Source: an uncultured Steroidobacteraceae bacterium
GTDB lineage: Bacteria > Pseudomonadota > Gammaproteobacteria > Steroidobacterales > Steroidobacteraceae
Direction of reading: 5' to 3'
NCBI GenBank assembly: GCA_964597495.1
Contig: CAZQYC010000039.1
Location: 1 to 34,861 of the forward strand
Length of the DNA stretch: 34,861 nucleotides
The notes below the pieces were generated by a model, which saw only the letters and a list, made by a program, of their open reading frames with translations, made no database searches and was not told the DNA's origin. The position numbers were made by a program, and so were the translations under genes. Shown one piece after another: positions 14,613 to 34,459 of the stretch; the stretch's first letter is position 1, and the number at the start of each line of letters is the position of its first letter.

Positions 14613-14759
14613 TTATCCAACCGCATGCAATCGCGAGGTCTCCGGAACACCAAGGAGCAGGAACTCCATTTGATCCGCGAGGACGAACGCTTCGTACCGG
14701 TTTGACGCGTACGGTAGGTAGTGCAGTTTTATGTCTGCATCCTTCGACGTACGATCGGC
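14613..14759 (-). pseudogene. Decayed 3' fragment of an HNH endonuclease gene, the last ~48 codons, paralogous to the intact gene at 31055-31627, plus its terminator hairpin remnant at 14585-14611
   Basis: The reverse-strand translation reads ADRTSKDADIKLHYLPYASNRYEAFVLADQMEFLLLGVPETSRLHAVG*. The intact gene ends ADRTPEAAGMKLHYVPYVPNRYEVFILANRKILADQMEFLLLGVPKTSRLHANG*. An in-frame stop lies upstream of the fragment. The downstream GGGCGGAG...CGCCC hairpin is also shared. Confidence 0.6.
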
Positions 14760-15091
14760 CTAGTTGAATTGCTGATTTCGAATTGCTTCAATGGCAATAT
14801 TATTTGTAATATTTAGTAAACGAGAATAATGCACTGAGCAGTGCAGTCTGACCTCGATCGAGGGCACGGGCGGAACGTACACGCAGTCGTTCAGGTACGC
14901 CAATGCAAACGTGAACATGGAAGGCCGCGGTAACTTGGGAGTCTGGGGGGCTCAGGTACCGGTGAGAACATTCCAACATTCGGCCCGATGAGAAGCGGTC
15001 GCGCATTCGTATGAATGTTCAACTGCTCTCATCGCCACCGGGAAATCTCCTCTTAATCTACTCAAGGCCTTTGGGTTCTAGGAGAAAAGCC

Positions 15092-15652: not shown

Positions 15653-17041
15653 ATGCCCCAGCATCCAAGCGAATCCTTACTTCGACACTTGCAGGCGGGC
15701 GTTGCTTCATCCGTTGAGCTTGAAACCGTGCTTGGGCAGTCCCAATCCACTGTATCGCGCTACTTACGTCAGCTAACGGCAGCGGGTTTGATCATTCGCC
15801 TCGGCAACACTCGGGGTGCGCGCTATGGGTTGCTCAGACCGATCGAAGGCATCGGTGCAAAGTGGCCGCTTCGCCGCATCGATTCTGCTGGCCAACTTCA
15901 TCTACTAGGCACGCTCTGTTCGTTGTATGCCGAACAATTTTATTTCGAGCCAGAGTCTGATGGGTTTGCGTACGATGGAGTTACCCACGGATTACCGTAC
16001 TATCTCCAGGATCAGCGGCCAGCCGGATTTCTTGGGCGCGCCGTTCCGCGTCAGTATCCAGAACTTCAATTGCCGCAACGCGTAGTCGATTGGAACGAAG
16101 ATCACTACCTACGCTATCTCACCCAGCGTGGCTCGGACACGGTCGGCGACCTCATCCTAGGCGATCAGGCGTTCGATCAGTTCCTGATCATGCAAAGGCA
16201 GCGAACGATCGCGAGCGTCAAGGATCGCGAGATCCGATACCCGCAGTTTGTGGCTGAAGTCATGGAGGGTGGTTTGCCGGGATCTTCCGCGCATGGTGAG
16301 CATCCGAAATTCACGGCGTTAATTGAGAGTCCATCGGGGCCAATGCATGTGCTCGTGAAGTTCTCACCGCCTGACCGTACCGCGGTCGGACAGCGATGGT
16401 CAGATCTGCTGATCGCCGAACACATTGCACATGAAGTGCTCGCGGCGGCGGGTCTGCCCGCGACACGCTCGCGCATCGAACGCTATGGTGACCGCACCTA
16501 TCTCGAAGTGGAGCGTTTCGATCGCGCGGGACTCGAAGGGCGAGTAGGGGTCACGTCACTGTTCGCGATTGATGCCGAACAATACGGCAAGCTCGACAAT
16601 TGGGTCGACTCTGCGACGCGGCTTCGTGACGACCGCCGAATTGATCCGACGACCTGCGAGCTTGTTCGCCTGATATCGACCTTCGGCGCACTGATTGCAA
16701 ACACGGACCGGCACTTCGGCAACCTAGCGTTTTACGATGCCTATGATGGTCGTTACTCGTTAGCACCGGTATACGACATGCTGCCCATGCTTTTTGCGCC
16801 AGAACACGATCAGGTGATTGCACGCGTCTTTCAACCACCCGATCCAACCTCACAGACACTGCGAGCATACGGGCGCGCGCGCGCGCTTGCAGAGGAATAC
16901 TGGCGCCGATGCGCCCATGATTCTCGAATCAGCGAGGAGTTTCAAGCTATCTGTGAGAAGTGTGGCGAGACACTCGAGAAGTTGCCTCGCACGGGTGCCT
17001 ATGCCTATCACGAAACTGAGCCGTTTCCGAAGACACAGTAG
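15653..17041 (+). CDS. HipA-family Ser/Thr kinase toxin homologue with a fused N-terminal winged-HTH (YjjJ/HipH-like architecture)
   Basis: The N-terminus LETVLGQSQSTVSRYLRQLTAAGLIIRLGNTRGARYGL is a winged HTH. The C-terminus carries the HipA catalytic signature IANTDRHFGNLAF. An AT-rich upstream region has repeated CTAG and TTTGTTTTTAT motifs (15520-15640). Confidence 0.7.
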   Translation: MPQHPSESLLRHLQAGVASSVELETVLGQSQSTVSRYLRQLTAAGLIIRLGNTRGARYGLLRPIEGIGAKWPLRRIDSAGQLHLLGTLCSLYAEQFYFEPESDGFAYDGVTHGLPYYLQDQRPAGFLGRAVPRQYPELQLPQRVVDWNEDHYLRYLTQRGSDTVGDLILGDQAFDQFLIMQRQRTIASVKDREIRYPQFVAEVMEGGLPGSSAHGEHPKFTALIESPSGPMHVLVKFSPPDRTAVGQRWSDLLIAEHIAHEVLAAAGLPATRSRIERYGDRTYLEVERFDRAGLEGRVGVTSLFAIDAEQYGKLDNWVDSATRLRDDRRIDPTTCELVRLISTFGALIANTDRHFGNLAFYDAYDGRYSLAPVYDMLPMLFAPEHDQVIARVFQPPDPTSQTLRAYGRARALAEEYWRRCAHDSRISEEFQAICEKCGETLEKLPRTGAYAYHETEPFPKTQ

Positions 17042-20563: not shown

Positions 20564-22114
20564 ATGGATCACACAAGAATCCAACCCAACGTCGTTGACT
20601 CTGCGGATTTGCTCCGCCATATCACGGCAGACAAAGCGCCGCTCTACCGTAGCATCATGGATGTATTCGCGGCGGCTAAGCGGCAATACCGGCTGCAACT
20701 TCGGCCCGATGAAGTGGCTAGCGAAGCCACCTGGCCAGGGGACACACCCCGCATTGAAGAGATCAATGCCATGCTCACGCAGCTGTCGCAATGGGGCAAC
20801 CTGGAGTCACAGCCAGACACAACACGTGTTTCGACACTCAGCGATTTCTATCGAGCGAGATATCTGTATCGGTTGTCCCATGGCGGTGAAGCGGTCGAAG
20901 CCGGCCTCGCCGTGCTATTGCAGACGTTGCGTCGTCGCGCCGAACTGCAGACCGTTGCGCTCGAGGACATCGCTGGCCGCTTGCTTGCGCTCAAGCAACT
21001 CATCGAAGCCGATACCGATGGCAAGGGGCCCGATGTAGCAAAGTCGCACGAAACTCTGCGCGACCTCGTACGCGTATTTGAGGACCTCGCCGAAAACGCG
21101 CAATCCTTCATGGCCAGTGTTGCTCGCAGCCTGGAACTCCAGCAAGCGGACGCGAACACAATCGTCAACTACAAGCGCCGCCTGATCGACTATCTGGAGC
21201 GATTCATCGGCGACCTGGTCCGCCGATCCGACAGCATCGCTCGATTGATCCAGTATCTGACGAGCTATGTCGATGGAATTTTTTTGCAGATCGCGGAGCG
21301 CGAAGCCAGGGATGCTGCGCCCGGCGATGCGAGCGATCAGCAGGATCAGAAGATCGAACGATGGAGTGTTTGGACAGAACGTTGGAAAGGGCTGCGCGGG
21401 TGGTTTCTTTCCACTGGTGCAGAGCCGCCTCAAGCGGAGCTGCTGAGAGCGCGGGCCCGAGCAGCAATTCCGCTGCTGCTTGGCGCGATAGCGACGTTGA
21501 ACGAGCGTCGCAGCGGTCGCAGCGATCGCTCGGCGGATTTCCGCGTTCTGGCGCAGTGGTTCGCCGCCTGTGGCACCGATGGAGAGGCGCATCGTATGGC
21601 GCGTGCTGCGTTCGCACTCCAACCAGCTCGGCATTTCTCGCTCAATCCGCATGCAGATGGCGATCTTCCCGCCAGCACACCGTGGGCTGAAGCACCGCCG
21701 CTGCAAATAAATCCTCGACTACGCGAGTATGGTGAGGCAGCACCTCGTGGTCCGTTACCACGCGTCAGGGATAGGAGCGCGGAACGTGAATTGATGGCGC
21801 AGCAATTAGCTGAAGAGTCTCGGCAAGTGCAAGCCGCGCGGCAGCGCCTTGCAACGGGGCGTCCAGCTCGTTTGTCAGAAATCGGCGAACTCGACAAGCA
21901 TGCATTTCAACTCTTTCTGGGCTTGTTAGGCGAAGCGCTTTCGGACCAGCTCAATCCCGATCAGCCGGTGGAGCTGCAAACGGGTGACGGACTCCTTCGA
22001 GTACGTCTGGAACCCTTGCCCGCTGAGAGCCGAGCCACCATTGAAACGCCCGCCGGCACGTTCTCGGGAAGAGATCACCTGCTGACCATCACCGAGATCC
22101 ACGCAACCGAATGA
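20564..22114 (+). CDS. jetA: Wadjet JetA (MksF/kleisin-like, DUF3375-type)
   Basis: First gene of a four-gene operon with the size pattern 516/411/1387/421 aa and ATGA-overlapped junctions. Identified mainly by operon context with JetC and JetD. Confidence 0.55.
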   Translation: MDHTRIQPNVVDSADLLRHITADKAPLYRSIMDVFAAAKRQYRLQLRPDEVASEATWPGDTPRIEEINAMLTQLSQWGNLESQPDTTRVSTLSDFYRARYLYRLSHGGEAVEAGLAVLLQTLRRRAELQTVALEDIAGRLLALKQLIEADTDGKGPDVAKSHETLRDLVRVFEDLAENAQSFMASVARSLELQQADANTIVNYKRRLIDYLERFIGDLVRRSDSIARLIQYLTSYVDGIFLQIAEREARDAAPGDASDQQDQKIERWSVWTERWKGLRGWFLSTGAEPPQAELLRARARAAIPLLLGAIATLNERRSGRSDRSADFRVLAQWFAACGTDGEAHRMARAAFALQPARHFSLNPHADGDLPASTPWAEAPPLQINPRLREYGEAAPRGPLPRVRDRSAERELMAQQLAEESRQVQAARQRLATGRPARLSEIGELDKHAFQLFLGLLGEALSDQLNPDQPVELQTGDGLLRVRLEPLPAESRATIETPAGTFSGRDHLLTITEIHATE

Positions 22115-23346
22115 GCACCCGGCGATCACTGCAGGACAGCCGACGGATCGGCGATCTCCAAAAGTCCATGCAACAGGATGAATTCCGTAAGGCGTTGCGC
22201 GCATTGCTGATGACGCCGCTGATGTCACCCGAGCATGAAGATTTTGCAGCAGTGCGCCGGCAGGCCGAGCGGGTGCGCGATTGGTTCGCACGCGAGACCG
22301 GCTGGCCCTTATACATCGATCGTGAAGGTGCGCGCTTGTTCAAGCGACCCGCCGACTTGACGGACGATACCCGCGGCCTGCCTGAATACAATCGCTATCG
22401 CTATGTGCTGCTTTGCCTGTGCTGCGCCGTGCTTGAACGCGCCGATCCTCAGATCACGTTGAGGGTGCTCGGTGAACGTGTGATGCAGCTGGCGGCTGAT
22501 CCTACGCTCGCCGCATACGGATACGAATTTACTTTCGGGACGGCTGTCGAACGGCGTGCTCTCGTAGCTGTGTGCAAGACGCTGCTGGAACAAGGAGTGT
22601 TGCAGCGAGTGGCGGGTGACGAGGAAAATTTCGTGCACGAGAGCGGGTGGACGCAGTCGGACGCGCTCTACGATGTGCAACGGCGATTATTGGCTGGCAT
22701 GCTCGCCGCCATTCGCGGACCCTCGACTTGGCGCGCTGAAGAAGCACCGGCAGATTTCGAATCTCGCTTGCGATCTCTGATTGCCGAACATATCACAGAC
22801 AGCGATCAGGGTCGTCGCGACGCCCTGCGCCACTATCTTGCGCGCCGCCTATTGGACGATCCCGTACTTTATACCTCTTCACTGAGCGAGGAAGCTCAAG
22901 CGTACTTCATCAATCAGCGCGGTCCGATGGCAAGCCGGCTCAGCGATGCGCTAGGACTCATCGCCGAGCAGCGCGCCGAGGGTTTGGCGCTCACCGACGA
23001 AGCGGGGCAACTCACTGATGTGACTATGCCGGCCGAAGGGACGGAGGCGCACGCCACATTGCTCGTCGCGGAATTTCTCGCGCAACGTTTGCGCTCGAGT
23101 TCATTGCCTACGGTAACGACAATGGACGCGATTGCGGGTCACTTGCGTAACGCAAGCGCGCAGTACGGCAAATACTGGCGCAAATCCGCACGCGCACCCG
23201 GTGCGGAGAAAGAGCTTGCCGGTATCGCCGTCGACAGGCTTCGCAAGTTGCGACTGGTTGCGCTCGAACAGAATCGCATCACACCGTTGCCCGCCATTGC
23301 GCGCTTCGCGGTGGGACAAACCGATATCCGTGCCACAGATTCATGA
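22111..23346 (+). CDS. jetB: Wadjet JetB (MksE-like, DUF4194-type)
   Basis: Start ATG overlaps the jetA stop (ATGA at 22111-22114). Position and size fit JetB. Confidence 0.55.
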   Translation: MSTRRSLQDSRRIGDLQKSMQQDEFRKALRALLMTPLMSPEHEDFAAVRRQAERVRDWFARETGWPLYIDREGARLFKRPADLTDDTRGLPEYNRYRYVLLCLCCAVLERADPQITLRVLGERVMQLAADPTLAAYGYEFTFGTAVERRALVAVCKTLLEQGVLQRVAGDEENFVHESGWTQSDALYDVQRRLLAGMLAAIRGPSTWRAEEAPADFESRLRSLIAEHITDSDQGRRDALRHYLARRLLDDPVLYTSSLSEEAQAYFINQRGPMASRLSDALGLIAEQRAEGLALTDEAGQLTDVTMPAEGTEAHATLLVAEFLAQRLRSSSLPTVTTMDAIAGHLRNASAQYGKYWRKSARAPGAEKELAGIAVDRLRKLRLVALEQNRITPLPAIARFAVGQTDIRATDS

Positions 23347-26300
23347 GCGACACTCCGCCAACTCCACCACCTGCGTTGCCCCGACCGACCCGAGAACGGT
23401 GGCAGCCATTGCGGCTAGGCGTGGTCGAAGTCTTCCACTACGACAGCGAGGAGTTTTGGTTTCACGATGGTCATTTGCTGTTACGCGGCAACAACGGCAC
23501 TGGCAAGTCCAAGGTGCTTTCGCTAACGCTGCCATTTTTGTTCGACGCGCAGTTGCGTCCTTCGCGCATCGAGCCCGACGGCGATGCCAGCAAGCGAATG
23601 TCGTGGAACCTGCTGATGAACAGTTATCCGCGCCGCATGGGCTACACCTGGATTGAATTCGGTCGGCGTCTCAGCGACGGCTCGGTGCGTTATTTGACGC
23701 TGGGTGCTGGTCTTTTGGCGGTGGATGGCAAGCCGCAAGTCGATAGCTGGTACTTCATTCTTGACGGAGGCGACCACCAGACCGGTGTGCGCATCGGCCA
23801 GGATTTATGGCTCACCGGTACGCAGCGCGTCGTGCTCACACGCGACCGCCTGCGGGAACGCATCGAAGATCCGGGCTGGGGCCAGGTATTCGAGTTCAGC
23901 GGCCAGTACCGTCGGGCCGTCGATGAGCGGCTGTTCCATTTGGGCAGCAAACGTTACGACGCGCTTATGGATACGCTGATCCAGTTGCGACAACCGCAGC
24001 TATCGAAAAAGCCGGACGAGGCCGGTTTGTCTCAGGCTCTGAGCGACGCACTGCCGCCCATTCCATCCGAGCTACTGACGGATGTGGCCCAAGCGCTCAA
24101 CCAACTGGAGGAGGATCGCAATCGCTTAGAAGAGCTGCGGCAGCTGGAGCGCGCTATCCGGCAGTTCGAGAGCCGCTATCGAGTGTACGCTGGCATGTTG
24201 ACCCGCCGACAAGCTCGCGAGCTGCGTCAAGCGCAGACGGGTTTCGACAACGCCAGCGAGGAGCGCAACAAGGCGCAGACCGAACTCGAGAGAACGCAGC
24301 AAGCCGAACAGGCCGGCATCGCCGCTCACGAGCAGGCTCGGCAAACGCTGGCCGCTGCGCGTGAGCATCTGGAGACTCTGCAGAGCGATCCCGCCAATCA
24401 AGACGCAAATCGCCTGAATCAGGCGGAACGAGACGCGTTGGAGGCAAACATCGCCGTCGCGTCCGTGGCCAAGCAGTGCGAAGAAGCGCGCCAGAAACTC
24501 ACAAGAGAAGAAGAACGCAGCCGGAAAGCGGCCGAGCGTGCCGACAACGCACAAGCGGAACTTCTATCCGTTCGGAAGCAATGCTGGAATGAAGCAGAAG
24601 CGGCGAGGGCGCTTGGCTCCTTCGAGTCCAATCGGCTCGCTGCGGCGACACCGGATGAGCTCGCGACGCTAGCGCGATCGGAGCTTGCAGCGGCGGCGGA
24701 AGAACTGCGTCTGGCTGGCGCGAAACGGCGCCAGGACATCAGGCACTTGGAACAGCGCCATGCCGCGGCGGACAAGAAATTGTCGGCGCTTGAATCGCTG
24801 CAAGTGACGCAGCGCGAGCGCCAGGCAGAGCTGGAGGACGCGCTGAGAAAGCGCACTGCCGCGGATGGCAATGCAGAGCTGGCCGCGAGTAGCCTTATCG
24901 AGGCATGGGTCGCACACATCGGTGCGCTGGGCCAGCTGCGCCTGGATGAGGTAGCGGTAATGCCGCAGCTCACAGCGTGGACCGCTCGCCCTGAGGGATT
25001 GAATCCGGCCAATTCGGCCCTTGGCGAAGCCTATCGGCAGGTCTCGCTTGATCATGCACGACGCGAGTCGTTGCTCAACGCAGAACAAACAGCGCAGGAG
25101 CATCGCCGCGCCGAGTTAATCGCCGAACGCGATCGGCTCGTTGCTGGTCATGATGCATTTCCACCGGCGAGGCCGACACGCTTGCCTGGTATTCGCGAGA
25201 AACGAGACGGCGCCCCATTCTGGCAACTGGTGGATTTCCAATCTCATCTCGAGCCAGCCGAACGCGCTGGCATTGAGGCTGCGCTAGAGGCGTGTGGCTT
25301 GCTGGACGCATGGCTCGCTCCGCATGGCACGTTGATCGCTCCCGACGGCACCGCATTACTGGATAGTCACTGGATTCGGCGTCCCGTCACGGCTACGACG
25401 AACCTGGCGAGCGCGTTGTGCCCAGCCGTGCCGGACGGCATCAGCATCGACGTTGCATTGATCACTGCACTACTGAGCAGCGTCGCGTATGGAGACGATG
25501 ACATGATGTCGGCCGAATCTTGGATCTCGAGAGACGGACGTTATCGACTTGGAGCCCTAGCCGGCGCGTGGCAAAAGAGCGAAGCGGTCTATGTCGGCCA
25601 CTCGGCTCGCGAGAAGGCGCGTAAGCGCCGCCTTGATGAGATTTCTCTACTAATCGAGGAGCTGAACGTCGCTGCCGCTGATATCGAGCGGCGCTTTGCC
25701 GAGCTGCACGCGGACCGCGAGCGCAGCAAGCAGGAGCTTGACGCTGCACCGTCTGATGTAACGCTTCGCGAAACAGTTCTCACAGCCGCAAGCGCCGGAC
25801 AGGAAGTCGCGAGGGCCTACCAGCGCTTCGAGCAAATCGAGACTCAATGCCGCGTTGCCGAGGATGAGCTGCAGGCGGCACGGGAAACAGTGCAGAAGGA
25901 TGCTGCAGATTTGCAACTCCCAAGCGAACCGTCGGCGCTGATATCGGTCAGCGATGCGGTCGATCGATTCAATGCCAGTTACCAGCATTTGCTATCAGCC
26001 GCACGTGAATGGCGCACCGCTCACCCCGAATATGTGGCGCAGCACGAGCGCGAAATCGAAGCTCGCCATGGGCTCTCGCAATTCGAGAGCACTAGAGCTG
26101 AGACAGTTGAGCGCGCGGAAAGAGCCCGCGTGCGCTTCGAAACGTTGCGCAACGCCGTCGGTCAGCAAGTGGAGCTGCTTCGGCAACAGCTGACAATTGC
26201 GCGGACGAAAGTGGATACAGCCGAGGATCACCTCGACAAGCAACAACTGTCCTTGAATGAGGCCCGCGAGCAACGTGTCATTGCTCATGCTCGGGCCGAA

Positions 26301-27506
26301 ACAGCCGAAGCAGCACTGACCGAGCGTGTCGAGGTTCGTGGCAGGGCGGTCGATAAATTGCAGCGCTTCACCGCCAGTGGCCTGCTTTCAGCCGCATTGC
26401 CTCAAATGGAGTTGCCGGATTTGGCAACGACCTGGACCATCGATCCAGCACTGACGCTGGCCCGCCGTACCGAGCAGGCGCTTACGCACATCAACGACGA
26501 CGAGGCTCATTGGAATCGCGTGCAACATCAGATCGGCGAAGATCTGACTGAGCTGCTTCGTTCGCTGAGCGCTCTGGGACATCACGCCAGCTCCGAGCCC
26601 AACGATTGGGGCTTTACTGTTCATATCCAGTATCAAAACCGCTCAGAACGTCCAGACACGTTAGCCAACGCTCTGGCGTACGATATCGCACAGCGGAGCG
26701 AGCTTCTTTCTGCCAAGGAGCGAGAGGTATTGGAGAACCACCTGCAGGCCGAGATAGCGGCTGAGATTCAGCGCTTGATGCGAGCTGCCGATCAGCAGGT
26801 CGGCACGATCAACGAGGAACTACATAAGCGCCCGACGACTACAGGTGTGCGCTATCGGTTGCTATGGCAGCCGCTATCTGCAGAGGACGGTGCTCCGGCG
26901 GGATTGGAGATCGCACGGGAGCGGTTGCTTCACACCAGCTCCGATCTGTGGTCGACAGAAGACCGCAGAGTGGTCGGTACGATGTTGCAACAACAGATCG
27001 TAGCGGAGCGTGCCCGAGCCGATGCGGAAACCAGTGGCACCGGCGGTAGTCTGCTCGATCAACTAGCCCGTGCTTTGGACTATCGTCGCTGGCACCGCTT
27101 TCGCGTGCAGCGACATCAGGATGGTCAATGGCGCAAACTGTCGGGACCAGCTTCCAGCGGTGAACGCGCGCTGGGCCTGACCGTGCCATTGTTCGCCGCC
27201 ATCGCGAGTTTCTACGGCCGAGGCGGCAGCCCACTCGCGCCAAGACTAATGCTGCTCGATGAAGCCTTCGCAGGCATCGACGATAAGGCCCGCGCCCACT
27301 GCATGGGGTTGATTCGTGAATTCGACCTTGACTTCGTGATCACGAGCGAACGCGAGTGGGCCTGCTATGCCGAGCTGCCTGGTGTATCAATCTGCCAATT
27401 GCAGCGCCGCGAGGGTGTGGACGCGGTGTTCGTTTCCCGCTGGACATGGGACGGGCGCGCCAAGCGACCAGAGCGAGATCCCGATCGAAGATTTCCGCCC
27501 ACATGA
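23343..27506 (+). CDS. jetC: Wadjet JetC (SMC-like ABC ATPase, MksB homologue)
   Basis: N-terminal LLLRGNNGTGKSKVLSLTLPFLFDAQLRP is Walker A with the conserved JetC N-terminus. It has very long Ala/Glu/Arg-rich coiled-coil arms, a C-terminal signature-like SGPASSGERALGLTV, and Walker B LMLLDEAF. Confidence 0.75.
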   Translation: MSDTPPTPPPALPRPTRERWQPLRLGVVEVFHYDSEEFWFHDGHLLLRGNNGTGKSKVLSLTLPFLFDAQLRPSRIEPDGDASKRMSWNLLMNSYPRRMGYTWIEFGRRLSDGSVRYLTLGAGLLAVDGKPQVDSWYFILDGGDHQTGVRIGQDLWLTGTQRVVLTRDRLRERIEDPGWGQVFEFSGQYRRAVDERLFHLGSKRYDALMDTLIQLRQPQLSKKPDEAGLSQALSDALPPIPSELLTDVAQALNQLEEDRNRLEELRQLERAIRQFESRYRVYAGMLTRRQARELRQAQTGFDNASEERNKAQTELERTQQAEQAGIAAHEQARQTLAAAREHLETLQSDPANQDANRLNQAERDALEANIAVASVAKQCEEARQKLTREEERSRKAAERADNAQAELLSVRKQCWNEAEAARALGSFESNRLAAATPDELATLARSELAAAAEELRLAGAKRRQDIRHLEQRHAAADKKLSALESLQVTQRERQAELEDALRKRTAADGNAELAASSLIEAWVAHIGALGQLRLDEVAVMPQLTAWTARPEGLNPANSALGEAYRQVSLDHARRESLLNAEQTAQEHRRAELIAERDRLVAGHDAFPPARPTRLPGIREKRDGAPFWQLVDFQSHLEPAERAGIEAALEACGLLDAWLAPHGTLIAPDGTALLDSHWIRRPVTATTNLASALCPAVPDGISIDVALITALLSSVAYGDDDMMSAESWISRDGRYRLGALAGAWQKSEAVYVGHSAREKARKRRLDEISLLIEELNVAAADIERRFAELHADRERSKQELDAAPSDVTLRETVLTAASAGQEVARAYQRFEQIETQCRVAEDELQAARETVQKDAADLQLPSEPSALISVSDAVDRFNASYQHLLSAAREWRTAHPEYVAQHEREIEARHGLSQFESTRAETVERAERARVRFETLRNAVGQQVELLRQQLTIARTKVDTAEDHLDKQQLSLNEAREQRVIAHARAETAEAALTERVEVRGRAVDKLQRFTASGLLSAALPQMELPDLATTWTIDPALTLARRTEQALTHINDDEAHWNRVQHQIGEDLTELLRSLSALGHHASSEPNDWGFTVHIQYQNRSERPDTLANALAYDIAQRSELLSAKEREVLENHLQAEIAAEIQRLMRAADQQVGTINEELHKRPTTTGVRYRLLWQPLSAEDGAPAGLEIARERLLHTSSDLWSTEDRRVVGTMLQQQIVAERARADAETSGTGGSLLDQLARALDYRRWHRFRVQRHQDGQWRKLSGPASSGERALGLTVPLFAAIASFYGRGGSPLAPRLMLLDEAFAGIDDKARAHCMGLIREFDLDFVITSEREWACYAELPGVSICQLQRREGVDAVFVSRWTWDGRAKRPERDPDRRFPPT

Positions 27507-28768
27507 CACGGGATTTACAGCAACCTGATGTTCGACTGGTGCGCCTCTTCGGCGGTAGTGATCTTGTACGGCTACGACGGCGACTAAGACGTCACTTCGA
27601 GCGACACGGCGGAGGCCTGAGCGGGTCGCTGCAGCTAAGTAATCTGATACCAATTGAGCAAGAAGTACTTGCTCAGTTGATGGGGCGCCCACCCCGTTCC
27701 GCGCGATCTATTCGTATACACCTTGATCAGCTGGACGCTTCACTGCGAGGTGCCGGAATCGCGGACTCGCTGCGCGCGGCATTGGAGATGTTGGATGGTC
27801 CTATCGAGGACCGTGCAGCTCTTCGGCAAGCTCGCCTGCTGCGATGGACGCAGGTGATCGATGCCGAGCGCTGGCATCCCATACTCCGTCTGTGGCTGCA
27901 AACGCCAACAACGGTCACGTCGCTCAAGCGCCTTGCTCGCGGTGACCCCTCCGCTGCTGAGCAATTACTTGAGCAAGCGAGTCGAGTGATGCGGCGACTT
28001 CCATCGGCGGGTATCACCAGAGCGCAGCTGGCTGCAGAAACGCTCGGCAATGCACATTCACTCGACAATGGATATCCGACATCAACGATTGTTCTCTCTG
28101 CACTGAGGCAGGAAAGCAGTCCAGACGATGCGCCTGCGACTGATGGACGGAACAGCGAGAGCGCGAAGGCTTCCGAGCGTGCTAGGGAAACCTGGGCCCG
28201 CGTAGGCGTACTTGTAAACGAGCTGGCGCGGCCCGCGCTGTGCTTGAATTTGCCAATGCCATTTCCAACGTTGATCGGTGGCTCATCGGGGGAACCACAA
28301 TATTTCTCACTGCGCTTTCTACTCCGCAAGAAACCTGTGTGGCAGTTTGATGGCATGCCGATTTACGTCTGCGAGAACCCCAACGTAATCGCGATTGCAG
28401 CGGATCAACTGGGCTCTCGCTGTGCGCCTCTGATCTGCACCGAAGGCATGCCTGCAGCCGCCCAGCGGGCATTGCTGACACAGTTGACTCGCGCCGGAGC
28501 CCGATTGCTCTACCACGGCGACTTTGACTGGCCAGGCGTACGCATAGCCAACTTTGTCATGCGCATTTGGCCCGCATTGCCTTGGCGCTTCACCACTGCT
28601 GATTACGAGGCGGCTGTTTCGCGCACAACACACAGCGTGCACGATTTGAGCGATATTCCTGTTAGCGCATCCTGGGATGATTCCTTGACGGAAGCGATGA
28701 AAATCCGTGGCTGCGCTATCGCTGAAGAAGCCGTTGTCTCTGAGTTGCTAAAAGACTTGGCACTCTAG
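27503..28768 (+). CDS. jetD: Wadjet JetD (MksG-like, Toprim/DUF2220-type nuclease subunit)
   Basis: Start ATG overlaps the jetC stop (ATGA at 27503-27506). The C-terminal Toprim-like acidic motifs are LICTEGMP and LLYHGDFDWPG. Confidence 0.65.
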   Translation: MTRDLQQPDVRLVRLFGGSDLVRLRRRLRRHFERHGGGLSGSLQLSNLIPIEQEVLAQLMGRPPRSARSIRIHLDQLDASLRGAGIADSLRAALEMLDGPIEDRAALRQARLLRWTQVIDAERWHPILRLWLQTPTTVTSLKRLARGDPSAAEQLLEQASRVMRRLPSAGITRAQLAAETLGNAHSLDNGYPTSTIVLSALRQESSPDDAPATDGRNSESAKASERARETWARVGVLVNELARPALCLNLPMPFPTLIGGSSGEPQYFSLRFLLRKKPVWQFDGMPIYVCENPNVIAIAADQLGSRCAPLICTEGMPAAAQRALLTQLTRAGARLLYHGDFDWPGVRIANFVMRIWPALPWRFTTADYEAAVSRTTHSVHDLSDIPVSASWDDSLTEAMKIRGCAIAEEAVVSELLKDLAL

Positions 28769-29237: not shown

Positions 29238-30380
29238 TTAGGCTGGGACCTGAATTCGCACGACGTCCTTTAGCACGCCATCGAGGCCGCCGAAGACGGT
29301 TAATTTGTCGACCTTCTCCGTGACCTTTTCGAGCGTTTCGAGCTCCTTCAAACGAAGCAGCGTCGGGTTCTCGTCCATGAGTCGGGCCGTGTTGAGGAGC
29401 GAACGCGTTGCTGCGGTCTCTTCACGACGCTTGATTAGGTTTGCTTGCGCGACCTTTTCAGCTTCAACCACACGATTGAGAATTTCCTTCATCTCACCCG
29501 GTAGGATCACGTCCTTGATGCCCACGCTCGCCAACGCGATGCCGTGTTGCTCGATCTTGCCGCGCGCAGTCGTCTCAATCTCTCGATCGAGTGCGCCTTT
29601 CGCGCCGAGCATTTCATCGAGCGTGCGAGTACCGACCGCTTCGCGCAGCGCAAACTGCAGTTCCTTGTAGACGAACTCTACGAAGTTCTGTAGCTCTCCG
29701 CGCGCTTTGACTGCATCGACCACCCGCCAGAGAGCAGTGAGATTGACGCGCAGGCTAACCTTATCCTTGGTCAAGATGTCTTGGCCGGAGACCTCCATGG
29801 TTTGTACACGACGATCGACCAGCTCGGTCTTGAGCGTGCGCTGGAACCTCCAGAATGCATGCAGGCCCGGCTCGAGAATCTTCGTGAATTGACCGTCCAC
29901 GATCAGCATTGCCGCCGAGGTATCCGGCACCTCCACGGTAACGACGGCCTCGGCGATCTGCGATGCGAGTGGCGGTTTCGCCCGTGCAATTACACGCGCA
30001 ACTTCTGCCGGTACCTCAAGCTCCTTGGCAGTGTCGATCTTAACGACGCGCAGATCGATCGGTCCCTTCCAGTAGAGCTGACGCTTACCGGGCGCAAGCA
30101 CACCCGCAAGCTTGTCATTCTTGTAGACGAGGCCGACCTCGCGATCCGTGAGTTCGACGATGTCGAAATACTTCTCCATCGTGGCACGTGCCTCCTTCAC
30201 GAGAAAGTCGACGCGCGCATGCTCGAACTCGGGCGCAGTAAGGTCGTAAACTTGCAGTTCTACGCGGACGAATGGCGCGACGATCCAGCGCGTGCCCGGC
30301 TCGAGCACTCCGGTGAACTGCTTATTCCTCCAGACGAGCGCACGCTCGTGCTGGGCGATCGTCACTCGCTTAATGGTCAT
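29238..30380 (-). CDS. SPFH/band-7 (stomatin/prohibitin/HflK-like) domain protein
   Basis: ILTKDKVSLRVNLTALWRVVD and the following Ala/Glu-rich coiled-coil are typical of the band-7 family. The N-terminus carries three repeats of a xGxLxPGxxxxxPF-like strand motif. Confidence 0.65.
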   Translation of the reverse strand: MTIKRVTIAQHERALVWRNKQFTGVLEPGTRWIVAPFVRVELQVYDLTAPEFEHARVDFLVKEARATMEKYFDIVELTDREVGLVYKNDKLAGVLAPGKRQLYWKGPIDLRVVKIDTAKELEVPAEVARVIARAKPPLASQIAEAVVTVEVPDTSAAMLIVDGQFTKILEPGLHAFWRFQRTLKTELVDRRVQTMEVSGQDILTKDKVSLRVNLTALWRVVDAVKARGELQNFVEFVYKELQFALREAVGTRTLDEMLGAKGALDREIETTARGKIEQHGIALASVGIKDVILPGEMKEILNRVVEAEKVAQANLIKRREETAATRSLLNTARLMDENPTLLRLKELETLEKVTEKVDKLTVFGGLDGVLKDVVRIQVPA

Positions 30381-30775: not shown

Positions 30776-30852
30776 TGGTCGCATTGGAGGGAATCGAACC
30801 CTCGACCTAGCAGTTGTTGGCTGCCTGCTCTATCCCACTGAGCTACATTGCG
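30776..30852 (-). tRNA. tRNA-like gene with the non-canonical anticodon loop CCAACAA (apparent anticodon AAC, C33), 77 nt including CCA
   Basis: Good cloverleaf: D-arm GCTCAGTGGGATAGAGC, T-arm GAGGGTTCGATTCCCTC, and an acceptor with 6 of 7 pairs. A34 and C33 are unusual, so it may be a pseudo-tRNA or an unusual tRNA. Confidence 0.4.
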
Positions 30853-31054
30853 TGGTGATTGAGGCACGACTCGCGCGGTACGCACAGCGACAGAGTCGCA
30901 GCGCGCCAGCGTGGCTTTGGAACCACGGCCGCTGACACGAAATCGCAAACCTCGATCTCGGTACCGATCGGCGCTCGTGCAATATGGACGAGCGCCGATC
31001 AGAATTCATAATCAAATTTGTACGCGGTGGGCGGAGCCTCTTCTCCGCCCACGT

Positions 31055-31627
31055 TCATCCATTTGCATGCAATCGCGAAGTCTTCGGCACGCCGAGAAGC
31101 AAGAACTCCATTTGATCGGCGAGAATTTTTCGATTCGCAAGAATGAAGACTTCATATCGATTCGGCACATACGGCACGTAGTGCAGCTTCATGCCGGCGG
31201 CTTCCGGCGTGCGGTCTGCCTTACCGTTATTGCATGCCTTGCAAGCCGCGACGAGATTCATCCACGAATCCGCGCCGCCCTTCGAGCGCGGTATCACATG
31301 TTCCATATCGAGTTCCTCGAATCGAAATCGCTGCGCGCAGTACGCGCAAATATATCGATCTCGAGCAAGCAGAATTTCCTTGGTGAGCGTCGGCACGTGA
31401 TCGAAGTGCCGGACGATGAAGTCCTTGCCCTTGATCGCGATGATCGAGCTTGCGCGGATGCACGACTGCAGGCCCGACGAACGCTGCGTGCCGCCGCGAA
31501 GCGTGAACTCGTGCGTACCCGCGGCCCACGCGATCATGTCGGTCGCGTAGTAGTGCGCAGCAGTGCGAACGTTAATCCACCGGTGCGGAGCGCCGGCGAC
31601 GTCGAGCGCGAGAATAGGCGGACTCAT
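31055..31627 (-). CDS. HNH endonuclease (His-Me finger), embedded in the tRNA array
   Basis: CAYCAQRF...EHVIPRSKGG...NLVAACKACNNGK is an HNH motif with a CxxC...CxxC zinc site. RBS GGAGAAG. Located 45 nt downstream of tRNA-Met on the same strand. Followed by a 10-bp-stem hairpin (31027-31052) plus a U-rich tract, and a 13-bp-stem hairpin (30966-31000). Confidence 0.8.
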   Translation of the reverse strand: MSPPILALDVAGAPHRWINVRTAAHYYATDMIAWAAGTHEFTLRGGTQRSSGLQSCIRASSIIAIKGKDFIVRHFDHVPTLTKEILLARDRYICAYCAQRFRFEELDMEHVIPRSKGGADSWMNLVAACKACNNGKADRTPEAAGMKLHYVPYVPNRYEVFILANRKILADQMEFLLLGVPKTSRLHANG

Positions 31628-31671
31628 CGAACTTCTCCTCTAGGTTGATCAACAGCGCTTGCTGCTGGTGG

Positions 31672-31748
31672 GTGGTCGTGCAGGATGGATTTGAACCATC
31701 GATAACCGGCTTATGAGGCCGGCGCGTTAGGCCGCTTCGCCACTGCAC
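31672..31748 (-). tRNA. tRNA-Met/CAT (elongator or Ile-lysidine type)
   Basis: Anticodon arm CCGGC-CTCATAA-GCCGG, T-arm GATGGTTCAAATCCATC, acceptor CGTGCAG/CTGCACG, discriminator A and CCA encoded. The 1-72 pair is formed, so it is not initiator-like. Confidence 0.8.
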
Positions 31749-31878
31749 GCATTCAAAGCGGAGGATCGGACTCCATGTCACGACCACCGCGTGCCGAACG
31801 AAAAGCGCGGTTTTCATTCGGCACCGACCACGATGCGAAGACGCATCGTGGCGAGCGTACATCCATGTACGCGGATTT

Positions 31879-31955
31879 TTGGTGGCCGCTGCTGGACTTG
31901 AACCAGCAGCCTCTCGATTATCGGTCGAGCGCTCTTGCCAAGTGAGCTAAGCGGC
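31879..31955 (-). tRNA. tRNA-Ile(GAT)
   Basis: Perfect acceptor GGCCGCT/AGCGGCC. Anticodon arm CTCGA-CCGATAA-TCGAG. T-arm GCTGGTTCAAGTCCAGC. CCA encoded. Confidence 0.85.
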
Positions 31956-32044
31956 CAAACGGTTAGTTGCGTGCAAGAACGTACACACGCCACGATGCGT
32001 CATCGCATCGTGGGCGGTGTCAAAAAAACACGCTTCTTGTTTGA

Positions 32045-32081
32045 CAAGCGGTCGTCGTGACACGGAGTCCGATCGACCGCT
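32045..32081 (-). other. Conserved-loop stem-loop motif, copy 1: 9-bp perfect stem AAGCGGTCG/CGACCGCTT around the loop TCGTGACACGGAGTCCGAT. It sits just 3' of the tRNA-Glu-like gene.
   Basis: Copy 2 at 32862-32894 has the same 19-nt loop with 1 substitution but a different, still complementary stem (compensatory changes). Confidence 0.55.
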
Positions 32082-32086
32082 TGAAT

Positions 32087-32162
32087 GTGGCGTTCCTGAG
32101 GGGATTCGAACTCCGGTTATCTCCGTGAGAAGAAGACGTCCTTTCCAACTAGACGATGAGAG
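32087..32162 (-). pseudogene. tRNA-Glu(CTC)-like pseudogene (acceptor stem does not pair)
   Basis: Glu-like D-arm TCGTCTAGTTGGAAAGGAC, anticodon arm TCTTC-TTCTCAC-GGAGA, and a T-arm with one mismatch. The 5' strand GCTCTCA cannot pair with the 3' strand CAGGAAC. Confidence 0.45.
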
Positions 32163-32172
32163 CAAGAAGCGA

Positions 32173-32259
32173 GTGGTGGAGGGTGCAGGATTCGAACCTG
32201 CGGAGATCGAGTCTCTCCCGGATTTAAGTCGAGTGCGTCAGATCACTCGTCCAACCCTC
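32173..32259 (-). tRNA. Class II tRNA-Leu(TAA)-like, 87 nt, with a weak D-arm and an A31-C39 mismatch. Possibly degenerate.
   Basis: Perfect acceptor GGAGGGT/ACCCTCC, T-arm GCAGGTTCGAATCCTGC, anticodon loop CTTAAAT, variable-arm hairpin GGAGA-GACTCGA-TCTCC. Confidence 0.5.
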
Positions 32260-32505
32260 CAGTAATCTAGATCTTTATGGCGGCGGGTGAAGGATGGCAC
32301 TTTATATGACAGTGCCGATGACACGTCCTTGTTACCGCGCCCGGCCAGCACATCCGTGTGCTGGCGTTCGCGCGGTTCAAATGCACGTTAAGTGCATTTG
32401 AAAATGCATCCGCGCTCACCCATCTGTTTTCGAAACAGCGCCACTTGGCCTCGATGGGAACCGACCATGGAAAGAAATTTGATCGCGCGGTGCGATCAAA
32501 CTGAA

Positions 32506-32582
32506 TTGGTGCGGCGTGCAGGATTTGAACCCGCGACCTCTCGGTTCGAAGCCGAGAACTCTGATCCACTGAGCTAATGCCG
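32506..32582 (-). tRNA. tRNA-Arg(TCG)
   Basis: Anticodon arm CTCGG-CTTCGAA-CCGAG, T-arm GCGGGTTCAAATCCTGC, acceptor with one mismatch. CCA encoded. Confidence 0.7.
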
Positions 32583-32604
32583 CGTGTTGTGCTCAAGCGA
32601 TGAA

Positions 32605-32682
32605 GTGGCGCGATGTGAAGGAGTTGAACCTTCGACCTCCGGCTTCGTAAACCGGCGCTCTAATCCAGCTGAGCTAACATCG
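32605..32682 (-). tRNA. tRNA-Arg(ACG)
   Basis: Perfect cloverleaf. Anticodon arm CCGGT-TTACGAA-GCCGG, T-arm GAAGGTTCAACTCCTTC. CCA encoded. Confidence 0.85.
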
Positions 32683-32687
32683 CATGA

Positions 32688-32762
32688 CTGGTGCACGCAG
32701 GAGGGCTCGAACCTCCGCCCCTTGCTTTGTAAGAGCGACGCTCGGCCGCTGAGCTATACGTG
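32688..32762 (-). tRNA. tRNA-Val(TAC)
   Basis: Anticodon loop CTTACAA, with one C-A mismatch in the anticodon stem. T-arm GGAGGTTCGAGCCCTCC. The acceptor has a G-U pair. It lies 5 nt from tRNA-Arg(ACG). Confidence 0.75.
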
Positions 32763-32861
32763 CATTGTGGATCACATCTGAACAAGACCCATGGATGGGT
32801 CTCGCCTGCGCTGTCTTCCGTGCAGGCGGCGATGAGCGAAAGTCACGTCTTTTGATCATCG

Positions 32862-32894
32862 CGCGGTTGTCGTGACAGGGAGTCCGATCAACTG
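32862..32894 (-). other. Conserved-loop stem-loop motif, copy 2: stem GCGGTTG/CAACTGC around the loop TCGTGACAGGGAGTCCGAT. It sits just 3' of tRNA-Asp.
   Basis: See copy 1. In both copies the motif ends ~6-8 nt before the encoded CCA (plus strand) of the upstream tRNA. Confidence 0.55.
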
Positions 32895-32901
32895 CATCAA
32901 T

Positions 32902-32977
32902 ATGGCGCCACGGATGGGGTTCGAACCCACGACGTCTCGCTAGACAGGCGAGCACTCTGGCCTCTGAGTTACCGCGG
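32902..32977 (-). tRNA. tRNA-Asp(GTC)
   Basis: Anticodon arm CTCGC-CTGTCTA-GCGAG, T-arm GTGGGTTCGAACCCCAT, discriminator G and CCA encoded. Confidence 0.85.
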
Positions 32978-33140
32978 CAAAATTCTTGTTGGATCACGCG
33001 TCAGGATCGCGCCTTGTCGTCCATGACCGGCGCGCAGTTGCGCCAGCTTTCGCTGTCCAAAATCGTTCCTACGATTTTGTCGAACCTAAATTCTTGCAGT
33101 CAAAGTGCGATGTCCTGCCAGTTAGACGGCGCGTGAACGA

Positions 33141-33215
33141 ATGGTGGGCGCGGAGGGGATCGAACCCTCGCCGTCCGATTAAAAGCCGGATGCTCTAACC
33201 CTTGAGCTACACGCC
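33141..33215 (-). tRNA. tRNA-Lys(TTT)
   Basis: Anticodon arm TCCGG-CTTTTAA-TCGGA, T-arm GAGGGTTCGATCCCCTC, acceptor GGGCGTG/CGCGCCC. CCA encoded. Confidence 0.85.
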
Positions 33216-33231
33216 CTCAACGAATGAAGAA

Positions 33232-33316
33232 TTGGTGCGCCTCGTCGGATTCGAACCGACATGTCGAAAGACACTGCGTCTTGAGCGCAGCGCGGCTGCC
33301 AATTTCGCCAGAGGCG
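33232..33316 (-). tRNA. tRNA-Leu(CAA), class II, 85 nt
   Basis: Anticodon arm CTGCG-CTCAAGA-CGCAG, long variable-arm hairpin TGTC-TTTCG-GACA, T-arm GTCGGTTCGAATCCGAC, perfect acceptor GCGCCTC/GAGGCGC. Confidence 0.85.
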
Positions 33317-33340
33317 CACAGTAGTAACGAAATGGTTCTT

Positions 33341-33549
33341 GGTGCGGGCGGCAGGAGTCGAACCTGCAATGGACGGAACTCCGATCATTACTCGGAGACA
33401 GCTTCGGCTTGGAAACGCGCTTCCCTAGCGACCCACTGAAGTAGCCGTTCGGTGCATCCGCAACCGTGGGCCTTGGCTGATTGCCCGTTTAGCCTTTCGG
33501 CTTCCCAGTTTCATCGTTTTTGGGCGCGGTTACCGTTTCGCCACACCCG
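33341..33549 (-). ncRNA. Unclassified ~209-nt element with tRNA-like termini: 5' acceptor plus D-arm (GCGGGTG-TG-GCG...CGC) and 3' T-arm plus acceptor plus CCA (GCAGGTTCGACTCCTGC-CGCCCGC-A-CCA), separated by ~135 nt
   Basis: The 3' module is a clean T-arm/acceptor. The only complementary 5' strand (GCGGGTG) lies ~200 nt upstream. The element is too long for a tRNA, and no tmRNA-like tag ORF was found. Confidence 0.3.
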
Positions 33550-33643
33550 CACAGTTCAAGAAATGACGTTGACACTACAGTTGGCTGCTTCGCATCATGT
33601 TTAATCTCGTTTGTTGGATTTCAAATAAATCCAACAAACGAGA

Positions 33644-33730
33644 TTGGTCCGTTCCCCCGGATTTGAACCGGGATGACATTGAAGTCACTGCGGTCTGAGC
33701 GCAGCGCGTCTGCCAATTCCGCCAGGAACG
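33644..33730 (-). tRNA. tRNA-Leu(CAG), class II, 87 nt, C1-G72
   Basis: Anticodon arm CTGCG-CTCAGAC-CGCAG, variable hairpin TGAC-TTCAA-GTCA, T-arm CCCGGTTCAAATCCGGG, perfect acceptor CCGTTCC/GGAACGG. Its 3' end abuts a 19-bp perfect hairpin (33602-33643). Confidence 0.8.
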
Positions 33731-33744
33731 GATCAAGAAAAAAA

Positions 33745-33821
33745 ATGGCACACCGGGAGGGACTCGAACCCCCAACTTGCCGTTTTGGAGACAGCTACTC
33801 TGGCCAATTGAGTTACCGGTG
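33745..33821 (-). tRNA. tRNA-Trp(CCA)
   Basis: Anticodon arm GCTGT-CTCCAAA-ACGGC, T-arm GGGGGTTCGAGTCCCTC, G1-U72 wobble. CCA encoded. Confidence 0.8.
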
Positions 33822-34029
33822 CAGATTGAGAGTCGGGCGCTTCCACGCGCCGTTAAAAAAATTGGTACCGACGGGTGAGTTCGGATGACTCTTCGAAGAC
33901 ACTTAACGTGTTTTCGAACCGAGCGAACGCAAATACATGGACATATTGGCCGGGCGCGATAACAGGGATGTGGATGTTGCGACAGCCTTGGCTGGCGTGT
34001 CTGCCTGTTTCACCACGTCGGCATTTCGA

Positions 34030-34103
34030 TTGGGGCCCTCAGTCGGAATTGAACCGACAACCTGCTGCTTACAAGGCAAGCTCTGCCAGTTGAGCTACAA
34101 GGG
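34030..34103 (-). tRNA. tRNA-Thr(TGT)-like, 74 nt, with a 4-bp anticodon stem and no nt 26
   Basis: Perfect T-arm GTCGGTTCAATTCCGAC, D-arm GCTCAACTGGCAGAGC, best anticodon loop CTTGTAA. The anticodon-arm geometry is unusual. Confidence 0.5.
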
Positions 34104-34115
34104 CATGGAAAAATG

Positions 34116-34204
34116 TTGGTGGGTAACCAGGGAGTCGAACCCCGTGTGTCCATTTAGGACGCCTGATTTACAGTCAAGTGCAGTCGCCAGTGCTGCTCGT
34201 TACC
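34116..34204 (-). tRNA. tRNA-Tyr(GTA), class II, 89 nt
   Basis: Acceptor GGGTAAC/GTTACCC, D-arm GCAG-CACTGGCGA-CTGC, anticodon arm CTTGA-CTGTAAA-TCAGG, variable hairpin GTCC-TAAAT-GGAC, T-arm CGGGGTTCGACTCCCTG. Confidence 0.85.
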
Positions 34205-34213
34205 CGAAGTAAA

Positions 34214-34313
34214 GTGGCGCGGACGAAGGGGTTCGAACCCTTGGCCTCGACGTTGGCAACGTCGCGTTCCGACCGAAGGAAGTGGCGCGTCCATACCATC
34301 TGGAATACATCCG
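34214..34313 (-). tRNA. Aberrant 100-nt tRNA-Gly(GCC)-like gene, with a canonical 3' two-thirds and a ~24-nt insertion/degeneration in the D-arm region. Possible pseudogene.
   Basis: Anticodon arm CGACG-TTGCCAA-CGTCG, T-arm AAGGGTTCGAACCCCTT, 3' acceptor CGTCCGC-G-CCA. The only pairing 5' strand (GCGGATG, G-U at position 6) lies 100 nt upstream. It is followed by a degenerate D-arm and an extra TTCC-TTCGGTC-GGAA hairpin. Confidence 0.5.
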
Positions 34314-34376
34314 CAATTAAGCAAGGTGCCTGTCTGTTCGACGTTCTTGCGAGTCGCGCGAAACATGCATCGGAAT

Positions 34377-34452
34377 ATGGAGCGGAGGACGGGGCTCGAA
34401 CCCGTGACATCGAGTTTGGAAGACTCGCGCTCTACCCACTGAGCTACATCCG
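34377..34452 (-). tRNA. tRNA-Gly(TCC), first gene of the array
   Basis: Anticodon arm CGAGT-CTTCCAA-ACTCG, D-arm GCTCAGTGGGTAGAGC, T-arm ACGGGTTCGAGCCCCGT, acceptor with one mismatch. CCA encoded. Confidence 0.8.
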
Positions 34453-34459
34453 CAAAATT

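Follow-up and report, generated by a model that had tools for sequence, protein, structure and literature searches.

A dispersed module of four hairpins in a Steroidobacteraceae tRNA array and in soil Gammaproteobacteria

The contig of an uncultured Steroidobacteraceae bacterium analysed here (CAZQYC010000039.1, assembly GCA_964597495.1; 34,861 nucleotides (nt), hereafter the window) carries a tRNA array in which an earlier note, made from the sequence alone, had described a stem-loop with a conserved 19-nt loop just 3' of two tRNAs and had taken it for a selected RNA structure. We find that this stem-loop is the 3'-terminal quarter, H4, of a module of four consecutive hairpins (H1-H4), which is present in three copies in the window and in many more in other bacteria. 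The hairpins are under selection as structure, and the modules lie at gene boundaries. We lean, if only slightly, towards reading the module as a structured DNA repeat like the repetitive extragenic palindromic (REP) sequences and bacterial interspersed mosaic elements (BIMEs), or like the miniature inverted-repeat transposable elements (MITEs), with the H4 tip as a putative protein recognition site; it would be a member of no described family.

The module, its fold and its family

Both copies of the motif TCGTGACA(C/G)GGAGTCCGAT described previously are present, at 32055-32073(+) and 32870-32888(+), with inverted repeats on both flanks. A third, inverted copy, TCGTGACATGGAGTCCGAT, which had been overlooked, lies at 31765-31783(-), co-directional with the two tRNAs that flank it, tRNA-Ile and tRNA-Met. 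The three matches to the 19-mer TCGTGACA-N-GGAGTCCGAT at up to three mismatches compare with 0.02 expected in the window, and none of 100 shuffles reaches three. The 19 nt are not a loop: in the ViennaRNA fold they pair as TCG/CGA and GAC/GTC, leaving a tip in which two U/T bulge out singly and the loop is the 5-nt A-N-GGA, whose N is the sole variable base of the 19-mer (C, G or T). H4 of the first copy accordingly reads as an outer stem of 9-10 base pairs (bp) followed by TCG-T-GAC-ACGGA-GTC-CGA-T. The outer stems were said to differ and yet to stay complementary. The complementarity holds, but the sequences do not differ strongly (GCGGT(G/C/T)G with CC(T)CCGC, CGACCGC or CAACTGC), and a single pair (G-C, C-G, T-A) is truly covariant among the window copies; extensive covariation is seen only with the copies from other genomes.

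When the flanks of exact matches from species-representative genomes were aligned, the left flank of the 19-mer proved conserved for about 90 further bases. These comprise H1, of the form (G/C)(C/T)ACA-NGGA-TGT.., the G+C-rich hairpin H2, and H3, a long stem capped by AAAAA-CCACGC-TTTTT. The module measures about 108 nt in its commonest form and 117-121 nt in the window, where all three copies (modules A, B and C; Table 1) have the full H1-H4 unit. The motif is thus part of a longer repeat, the outcome that the earlier note had set against its own reading, since each copy is the H4 of a 117-121-nt module. Modules A-C each fold as four hairpins on either strand (z -3.9 to -8.4; -6.7 to -8.4 on the motif strand). 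They are old, diverged copies, 59-78% identical pairwise, and share a subfamily with copies from soil metagenomes.

All 16 tRNA genes called by ARAGORN in the array (30776-34453, with an HNH endonuclease gene inside) are on the minus strand. Module A fills the spacer between tRNA-Ile (31880-31956) and tRNA-Met (31673-31749) and is co-directional with them, while modules B and C, because of the common strand of the tRNAs, lie 3' of and antisense to their neighbours. The H4 end of module B faces the 3' end of a degenerate tRNA-like sequence, its stem ending 7 nt (taken as a 10-bp stem) to 9 nt (as a 9-bp stem) away; between module C and the CCA end of tRNA-Asp (32903-32978) there are 3 nt, or 7 nt counted from the H4 stem. 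The sequence beside module B had been called a Glu-like tRNA; its covariance score falls below the Rfam cut-off (Table 1), and with a good T arm and five non-standard pairs, mostly in the broken acceptor stem, it is probably a decaying tRNA gene. A solitary H1-type hairpin in the tRNA-Leu/tRNA-Arg spacer lacks H2-H4 and is not called as a module, and is probably a remnant or a single unit of the same mosaic family.

As the earlier note had proposed, a covariance model was built from the copies and used for scanning. This model, R1 (109 positions, 37 pairs), calls modules A, B and C and nothing else over the 34.9-kb window, and finds 161 non-overlapping modules in 139 public loci (numbered with the prefix L) among the matches listed. 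In 29 copies, 98.1% of the cells in paired columns are paired, against 33-51% when the partners are slid by 1-3 columns; changes on both sides occur in 26 of the 37 pairs, and none of 500 shuffles does as well. Where the top of H4 deviates from the search pattern, in 12 neighbouring copies, the GGA loop is kept in all 12 and the closing stem covaries, from GAC/GTC to GGC/GCC or GGCA/TGCC. The claim that the structure is selected, with its tip conserved and its stems changed in compensation, is therefore upheld, but not the part of it that singles out an RNA strand. An RNA usually tolerates G-U but not A-C, and this signature is absent: in unique stems, with no alignment fitted to a model, 47 G-T mismatches stand against 45 A-C (6 against 18 in H4, 37 against 21 in H3, 4 against 6 in H1), and the counts give no sign of selection on one RNA strand. 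Such a balance is more readily reconciled with a palindromic DNA than with an RNA read from one strand.

In the species-representative genome set the 19-mer is matched exactly in 28 stretches. True modules are present in 25; the other three (L006, L008, L022) have neither stems nor modules and were taken as chance matches. One metagenome-assembled genome (MAG; JAIBJL01) holds at least 17 copies of the exact core, several of them at contig ends, and other carriers are Steroidobacter flavus, S. agaridevorans, two Steroidobacter MAGs and other Gammaproteobacteria MAGs. A metagenome scan with the 19-mer returned at least 120 stretches, from soil and rhizosphere. Neither the module sequence nor its complement occurs in the literature searched, no Rfam family matches the window modules or six representative loci at E<=1, the module having no tRNA-like similarity either, and plasmid records gave no match. 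A phage origin was rejected: blastn against phage records matched the tRNAs only, and the two matches of the 19-mer to viral contigs are stemless and fall within coding sequence of a low-GC phage. The family is apparently new and undescribed, though of a familiar intergenic-repeat kind, and belongs to Steroidobacter-like soil Gammaproteobacteria.

Repeat behaviour and position at gene boundaries

The repeat unit in the MAG is 180-240 bp long and contains no open reading frame (ORF), and its copies are 80-95% identical. Stems are common within a genome and different between genomes, giving genome-specific subfamilies. Tandem arrays in the same orientation, which make up most arrays, contain up to three modules (three each in L031 and L063) and are also found in L111; inverted pairs are formed by modules A and B around tRNA-Ile in the window and by modules in L135, and there are also reverse-complement H1 doublets. 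Further mosaic forms have a related double hairpin as a nested insertion, or extra sequence inserted in the loop of H3. At an orthologous position upstream of an mltD-like gene, S. flavus has H1 and H4 only (L013 2074-2134) and S. agaridevorans has H1-H4 (L021 7880-7987). The region upstream of an SPFH gene contains a module in L075, and the corresponding site of the window has none; sequence right after the H4 stem is homologous in both. In L031, an ORF of 318 amino acids at 1162-2118(+), assigned by eye from its C-terminal sequence to an IS110-family-like transposase, ends about 45 nt before three tandem modules (2164-2541). IS110-type elements target REP-like palindromes, and these modules may therefore be the insertion target of the transposase.

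A related mosaic piece was also observed, consisting of two reverse-complement H1-like hairpins, GCGCATCC-N-TGCGC ... GCACATCC-N-TGTGC. It is inserted inside modules or left of them in L045, L048, L098, L083, L037 and L073 and in the MAG loci L003, L007, L016, L023, L025 and L030, and can end with a GTTTCATACTAG tail, as in the long subfamily described below. Two further candidates were rejected. A long-range closing helix in the long subfamily, CATGAAAC/GTTTCAT, displayed no convincing covariation, and a small ORF on the reverse strand (ATGAAAC...) was discarded because the stems covary without preserving any coding.

The motif had been placed at a fixed short distance 3' of tRNAs. This describes modules B and C, which lie just 3' of a minus-strand tRNA or tRNA-like sequence, and the closeness to tRNA ends recurs in the window's subfamily in other genomes; it does not extend to the family, since 88% of the 161 modules lie far from any tRNA. 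Nineteen of the 161 (12%) lie within 150 nt of a tRNA, and a tRNA search of the 25 genome loci found none. Seventeen of the 19 tRNA-linked modules turn their H4 end towards the tRNA 3' end; two, module A and L135 827-950, turn it towards the 5' end. In ten cases the H4 stem ends about 5-16 bases from the annotated tRNA end, and in others a separate, long, terminator-like hairpin stands between tRNA and module. These 19 modules belong mostly to one subfamily, that of the window, which has an H4 outer stem CGCG..., a longer H2 and a length of 111-135 nt, and in which no CTAG flank was seen. The long subfamily, with the H4 stem CACGACCC, the tail TTTCATA and a left arm of about 65 nt, never stands beside a tRNA and has CTAG flanks on both sides in many loci.

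Forty modules have on their H4 side a convergent ORF supported by the G+C content of third codon positions (GC3), and in 28 of these 40, a count that takes in two pairs of near-identical contigs, the stop codon falls between -4 and +8 nt of the module end. The stop codon is TAG in 18 of the 28 near ORFs, lying within the terminal CTAG in 14 of the 18, against two of 12 distant ORFs. With crude gene calling, four of the 34 modules that have genes called on both sides lie between divergent genes, and none of the 161 lies inside a supported ORF, save for overlap with the stop codon. Between the split class II ribonucleotide reductase genes (nrdJa/nrdJb-like, named by eye), a module recurs at the same place and in the same orientation, starting 2-4 nt past the nrdJa stop codon (Table 1), and compensatory double changes in H1, H2 and H3 separate the copy in L011 from those in L029, L044 and L094.

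Table 1. Modules, their hairpins and associated features, in window coordinates unless a locus is named (R1, covariance model score).
Feature	Position	Strand	Description
Module A	31754..31874	-	R1 92.6 bits, E 2.6e-15; single-stranded DNA fold in four hairpins, -43.7 kcal/mol, z -8.4
Module A hairpins	H1 31855-31872; H2 31825-31853; H3 31791-31824; H4 31758-31790		plus-strand coordinates
Module B	31967..32084	+	R1 64.1 bits, E 5.8e-10; folds; 78% identical to module A
Module B hairpins	H1 31972-31985; H2 31990-32013; H3 32018-32046; H4 32045-32083		H1 degenerate (GAA for GGA)
H4 of module B (first copy of the earlier note)	32045..32083	+	RNA fold -25.4 kcal/mol, z -5.2
Module C	32783..32899	+	R1 90.6 bits, E 6.2e-15; fold -35.3 kcal/mol, z -6.7
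Module C hairpins	H1 32785-32802; H2 32803-32828; H3 32829-32862; H4 32863-32895		H1 GACCCA-TGGA-TGGGTC
H4 of module C (second copy of the earlier note)	32863..32895	+	outer stem GCGGTTG/CAACTGC, one G-T pair
Solitary H1-type hairpin	32344..32365	-	GCCAGCACA-CGGA-TGTGCTGGC; tRNA-Leu/tRNA-Arg spacer; CANGGATG match at 32351-32358(-)
nrdJa-nrdJb intergenic modules	L011 1806-1913; L029 3947-4054; L044 7582-7689; L094 3050-3157
HNH gene	31055-31627	-	Pfam HNH_5, E 6.6e-16
Degenerate tRNA-like sequence	32091-32163	-	24.5 bits (Rfam cut-off 29); no ARAGORN call
Low-GC hairpins	window 33603-33645; L063 714-770, 1312-1360; L144 ~1700-1765; L081; L057; L031 2550-2600

Interpretation and relation to known elements

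The anatomy of the module, the family with its distribution, the conserved fold and the places at gene boundaries are established by the data above. Copy number, subfamily structure, mosaic forms and one pair of filled and empty sites lead us to infer mobility at the DNA level. On the REP/BIME- or MITE-like reading that we narrowly favour, the module would spread as DNA, multiply within genomes and settle, or be retained, at outer gene boundaries, the window's subfamily a few bases from tRNA ends and the sister, CTAG-flanked subfamily on TAG stop codons. The stems would be maintained by compensatory change, and the H4 tip, with its two bulged T, GAC/GTC closing stem and A-N-GGA loop, would stay nearly constant because a putative mobilising or binding protein recognises the folded hairpin as single-stranded or cruciform DNA. 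The module would then have no tRNA-specific role: the three copies in three spacers of the tRNA array would be passengers, two antisense and one sense in the transcript. Filling these spacers, they would be co-transcribed with the tRNA precursor, and they are most likely discarded as spacer hairpins.

Of the known elements, the REP/BIME sequences and REPINs of Escherichia, Pseudomonas, Stenotrophomonas and Xanthomonas come close, being short, imperfect, G+C-rich palindromes that are extragenic and multicopy (PMC2817692). They share with the module the mosaics, clusters and inverted pairs, the palindromy kept by compensatory change, the concentration at gene 3' ends with rarity between divergent genes, and neighbours of IS110 type; they differ in consisting of a single 20-35-nt palindrome or a symmetric doublet, where the module has four different hairpins in about 110 nt, and in forming alternating arrays, where module arrays are mostly of one orientation and the tip sequence is conserved across genera. 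Structured MITEs, such as Correia/NEMIS of Neisseria and ERIC/IRU of enterobacteria, have terminal inverted repeats and a TA duplication. Like the module they are non-coding, dispersed elements, 100-200 bp in length, which form long hairpins when transcribed and are often co-transcribed with their neighbours, but the module has no terminal inverted repeats, and a repeated flank (CTAG) in one subfamily only. Non-autonomous elements derived from IS200/IS605 (palindrome-associated transposable elements; compare IS608 and ISDra2) resemble the module in their asymmetric ends without inverted repeats, subterminal imperfect hairpins, extrahelical T and insertion beside a fixed short sequence, which here would be CTAG in the one subfamily; the foot of their hairpins, however, is 10-19 nt from the junction, compared with 0-8 nt in the module, which has no replication-strand bias and with which no TnpA was found. 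Integron attC sites (RYYYAAC ... GTTRRRY) were rejected: an extrahelical T is present, but the hairpin feet are GCGGTNG/CNNCCGC, with no GTTRRRY at the boundary.

Several observations weigh against a mobile DNA repeat of these kinds. REPs associated with RAYT transposases have a conserved 5' GT(A/G)G head right before the palindrome (Nunvar et al. 2010, PMC2817692). No GTAG or GTGG head precedes H1-H4 on either strand in the window copies or the consensus, and the left end of the module, TTGTCCATCG..., does not match the reverse complement of its right end, TATGAAACG...; lacking both the head and terminal inverted repeats, the module departs from the defining features of classical REPs and of MITEs. 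A RAYT gene, which encodes an IS200-like Y1 transposase, is flanked by its repeats in the same genome. In about 700 kb of module-bearing loci and the window, no ORF has a RAYT-like HUH...Y..NP motif, no linkage of a transposase to the module was established, and in the loci analysed end motifs of the long subfamily never form a pair separated by more than 300 bp, as those of a longer element with the same ends would. Loci with positive and with negative GC skew of the flanks, measured on the motif strand, are equal in number (41 each; mean 0.0001; short windows of limited power), which argues against a strictly lagging-strand mechanism of the IS200/IS605 type. The 19-mer is invariant in 135 of 155 distinct sequences, a figure owed in part to the retrieval of the loci by an exact match to it. 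Finally, the module is kept between nrdJa and nrdJb in at least two species with compensatory changes, and both GGA loops are retained as their closing stems covary, both of which would also fit a host-level, possibly RNA-level, function.

The module might act at gene 3' ends as an RNA in its reverse-complement reading, a trailer following directly on a tRNA or stop codon, whose very stable hairpins, beginning with H4, would stop 3'-5' exonucleases or guide processing by RNase E or RNase III. Such stabilising and processing roles have been described for REP and Correia elements. We consider this unlikely. In its favour, 17 of the 19 tRNA-linked modules, and 13 against 5 of the modules between co-directional genes, put the reverse complement in the host transcript; H4 starts about 5-16 bases past the tRNA end or stop codon, with an A/U-rich linker between; the excess of A-C over G-T in the H4 outer stem in motif orientation would become G-U pairs in the reverse-complement RNA; and the nrdJa-nrdJb position is conserved, with compensatory changes. 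The wobble bias of H3 is the opposite, however, and the total is balanced; module A and L135 827-950 stand in the other orientation; most tRNA genes in the module loci and the window have no module; and the high copy number, mosaic forms and contig-end positions would be superfluous for such a role. An intrinsic terminator of the tRNA genes, a role that a G+C-rich hairpin directly 3' of tRNAs could suggest and that the earlier note had listed for H4, is very improbable. There is no T/U tract behind H4 on either strand (tails TTTGAATG, TTGAATG, ATCAATA), a promoter and terminator scan of the window called no terminator-like site after H4, the downstream tRNAs of the array follow immediately, and several loci have separate, classical terminator hairpins between tRNA and module. 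That note had also suggested a homing endonuclease target, and we regard it as scarcely credible that the module is the recognition site of the HNH enzyme, or another array-specific recombination site. The HNH gene does lie in the same tRNA array, about 45 nt downstream of tRNA-Met, but modules are common where there is no tRNA array, and tblastn with the HNH protein found no homologue in any module-bearing locus, its one other match being a fragment elsewhere in the window.

A different RNA-level explanation would place the function on the motif strand, where the loops of H1 (..ACA-NGGA-UGU..) and H4 (GAC-ANGGA-GUC) could titrate or recruit a CsrA/RsmA dimer, in the manner of CsrB or RsmY/Z. 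The consensus obtained for CsrA by SELEX is RUACARGGAUGU (PMC7652899). H1 fits it at 11-12 of 12 positions (e.g. GUACAGGGAUGU), at least 68 of 139 full-length modules having the CA-NGGA-UG form, and H4 supplies an A-N-GGA loop. In both loops the consensus N is the one base that varies, the variant H4 tops keep GGA without exception, S. flavus retains exactly H1 and H4, and the three tandem modules of L031 amount to six GGA hairpins. The module also shares with CsrB, RsmX, RsmY and RsmZ the repetition of hairpins whose A-N-GGA loops fit the CsrA/RsmE consensus, and their tandem copies. It differs in that only half of its hairpins have GGA, two sites per ~110 nt, and in being a repeat dispersed in both orientations, its GGA strand being mostly antisense to transcription of known direction. 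The Rfam models for CsrB, CsrC and RsmX/Y/Z give no match at E<=1 in the window modules or the six representative loci, the scan of the window found no sigma-70 promoter-like site before H1 and no terminator signature, a wobble asymmetry favouring the GGA strand is absent, and very stable stems reportedly disfavour CsrA binding. We therefore hold a CsrA-binding RNA to be improbable. Somewhat less probable again would be a mobile cassette of two protein-recognition hairpins acting at the RNA level, in which arrays such as that of L031 and the present tRNA array are gene-boundary-seeking decoys or recruiters of the Csr/Rsm network; we know of no Csr antagonist RNA in Steroidobacterales.

In annotating the window, one should avoid taking the stem-loops for signals of tRNA processing, of termination or of the HNH enzyme; what they mark is three insertions, or remnants, of a dispersed repeat, which is widespread in metagenomes from soil and rhizosphere and interrupts the assembly of Steroidobacter-like MAGs. 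This correction is useful for annotation and offers a lead to students of bacterial repeats, and on present evidence is not a new principle. What goes beyond an ordinary REP is the multi-hairpin architecture kept across genera with a near-constant tip, and the very precise placement at gene boundaries, on TAG stops in one subfamily and at tRNA ends in the other. If the placement reflects targeting, it would point to an uncharacterised insertion mechanism, and if the GGA loops are used as RNA, to a mobile repeat linked to the Csr/Rsm network.

Surroundings of the modules in the window

Within the tRNA array, ARAGORN assigns 4-base anticodons to the genes at 34031-34104 (gtaa) and 34215-34314 (cctt; 100 nt), both of which score above the Rfam tRNA threshold (48.9 and 42.8 bits). 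Another feature recurs in these tRNA regions: a low-GC hairpin, long and almost perfect, that extends from the tRNA CCA end (CCA-ATCT...) to ...AGATTGG (Table 1); it sits between tRNA and module in several loci and may be a terminator or a separate repeat family.

Four consecutive genes at 20564-28768(+) encode DUF2397, DUF2398, an SbcC/RAD50-like Walker B domain and DUF3323 with DUF2399, a domain set that we take to be that of an anti-plasmid Wadjet (JetABCD) system. The window therefore comes from a bacterial chromosome or island and not from a phage. Another coding fragment of HNH type, at 14616-14795(-), is 59% identical over 66 amino acids to the HNH protein of the tRNA array, and a HipA-like kinase with an N-terminal helix-turn-helix domain is encoded at 15653-17041(+). 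The SPFH/Band 7 protein, whose orthologue in L075 has a module upstream of its gene, is encoded at 29238-30380(-).

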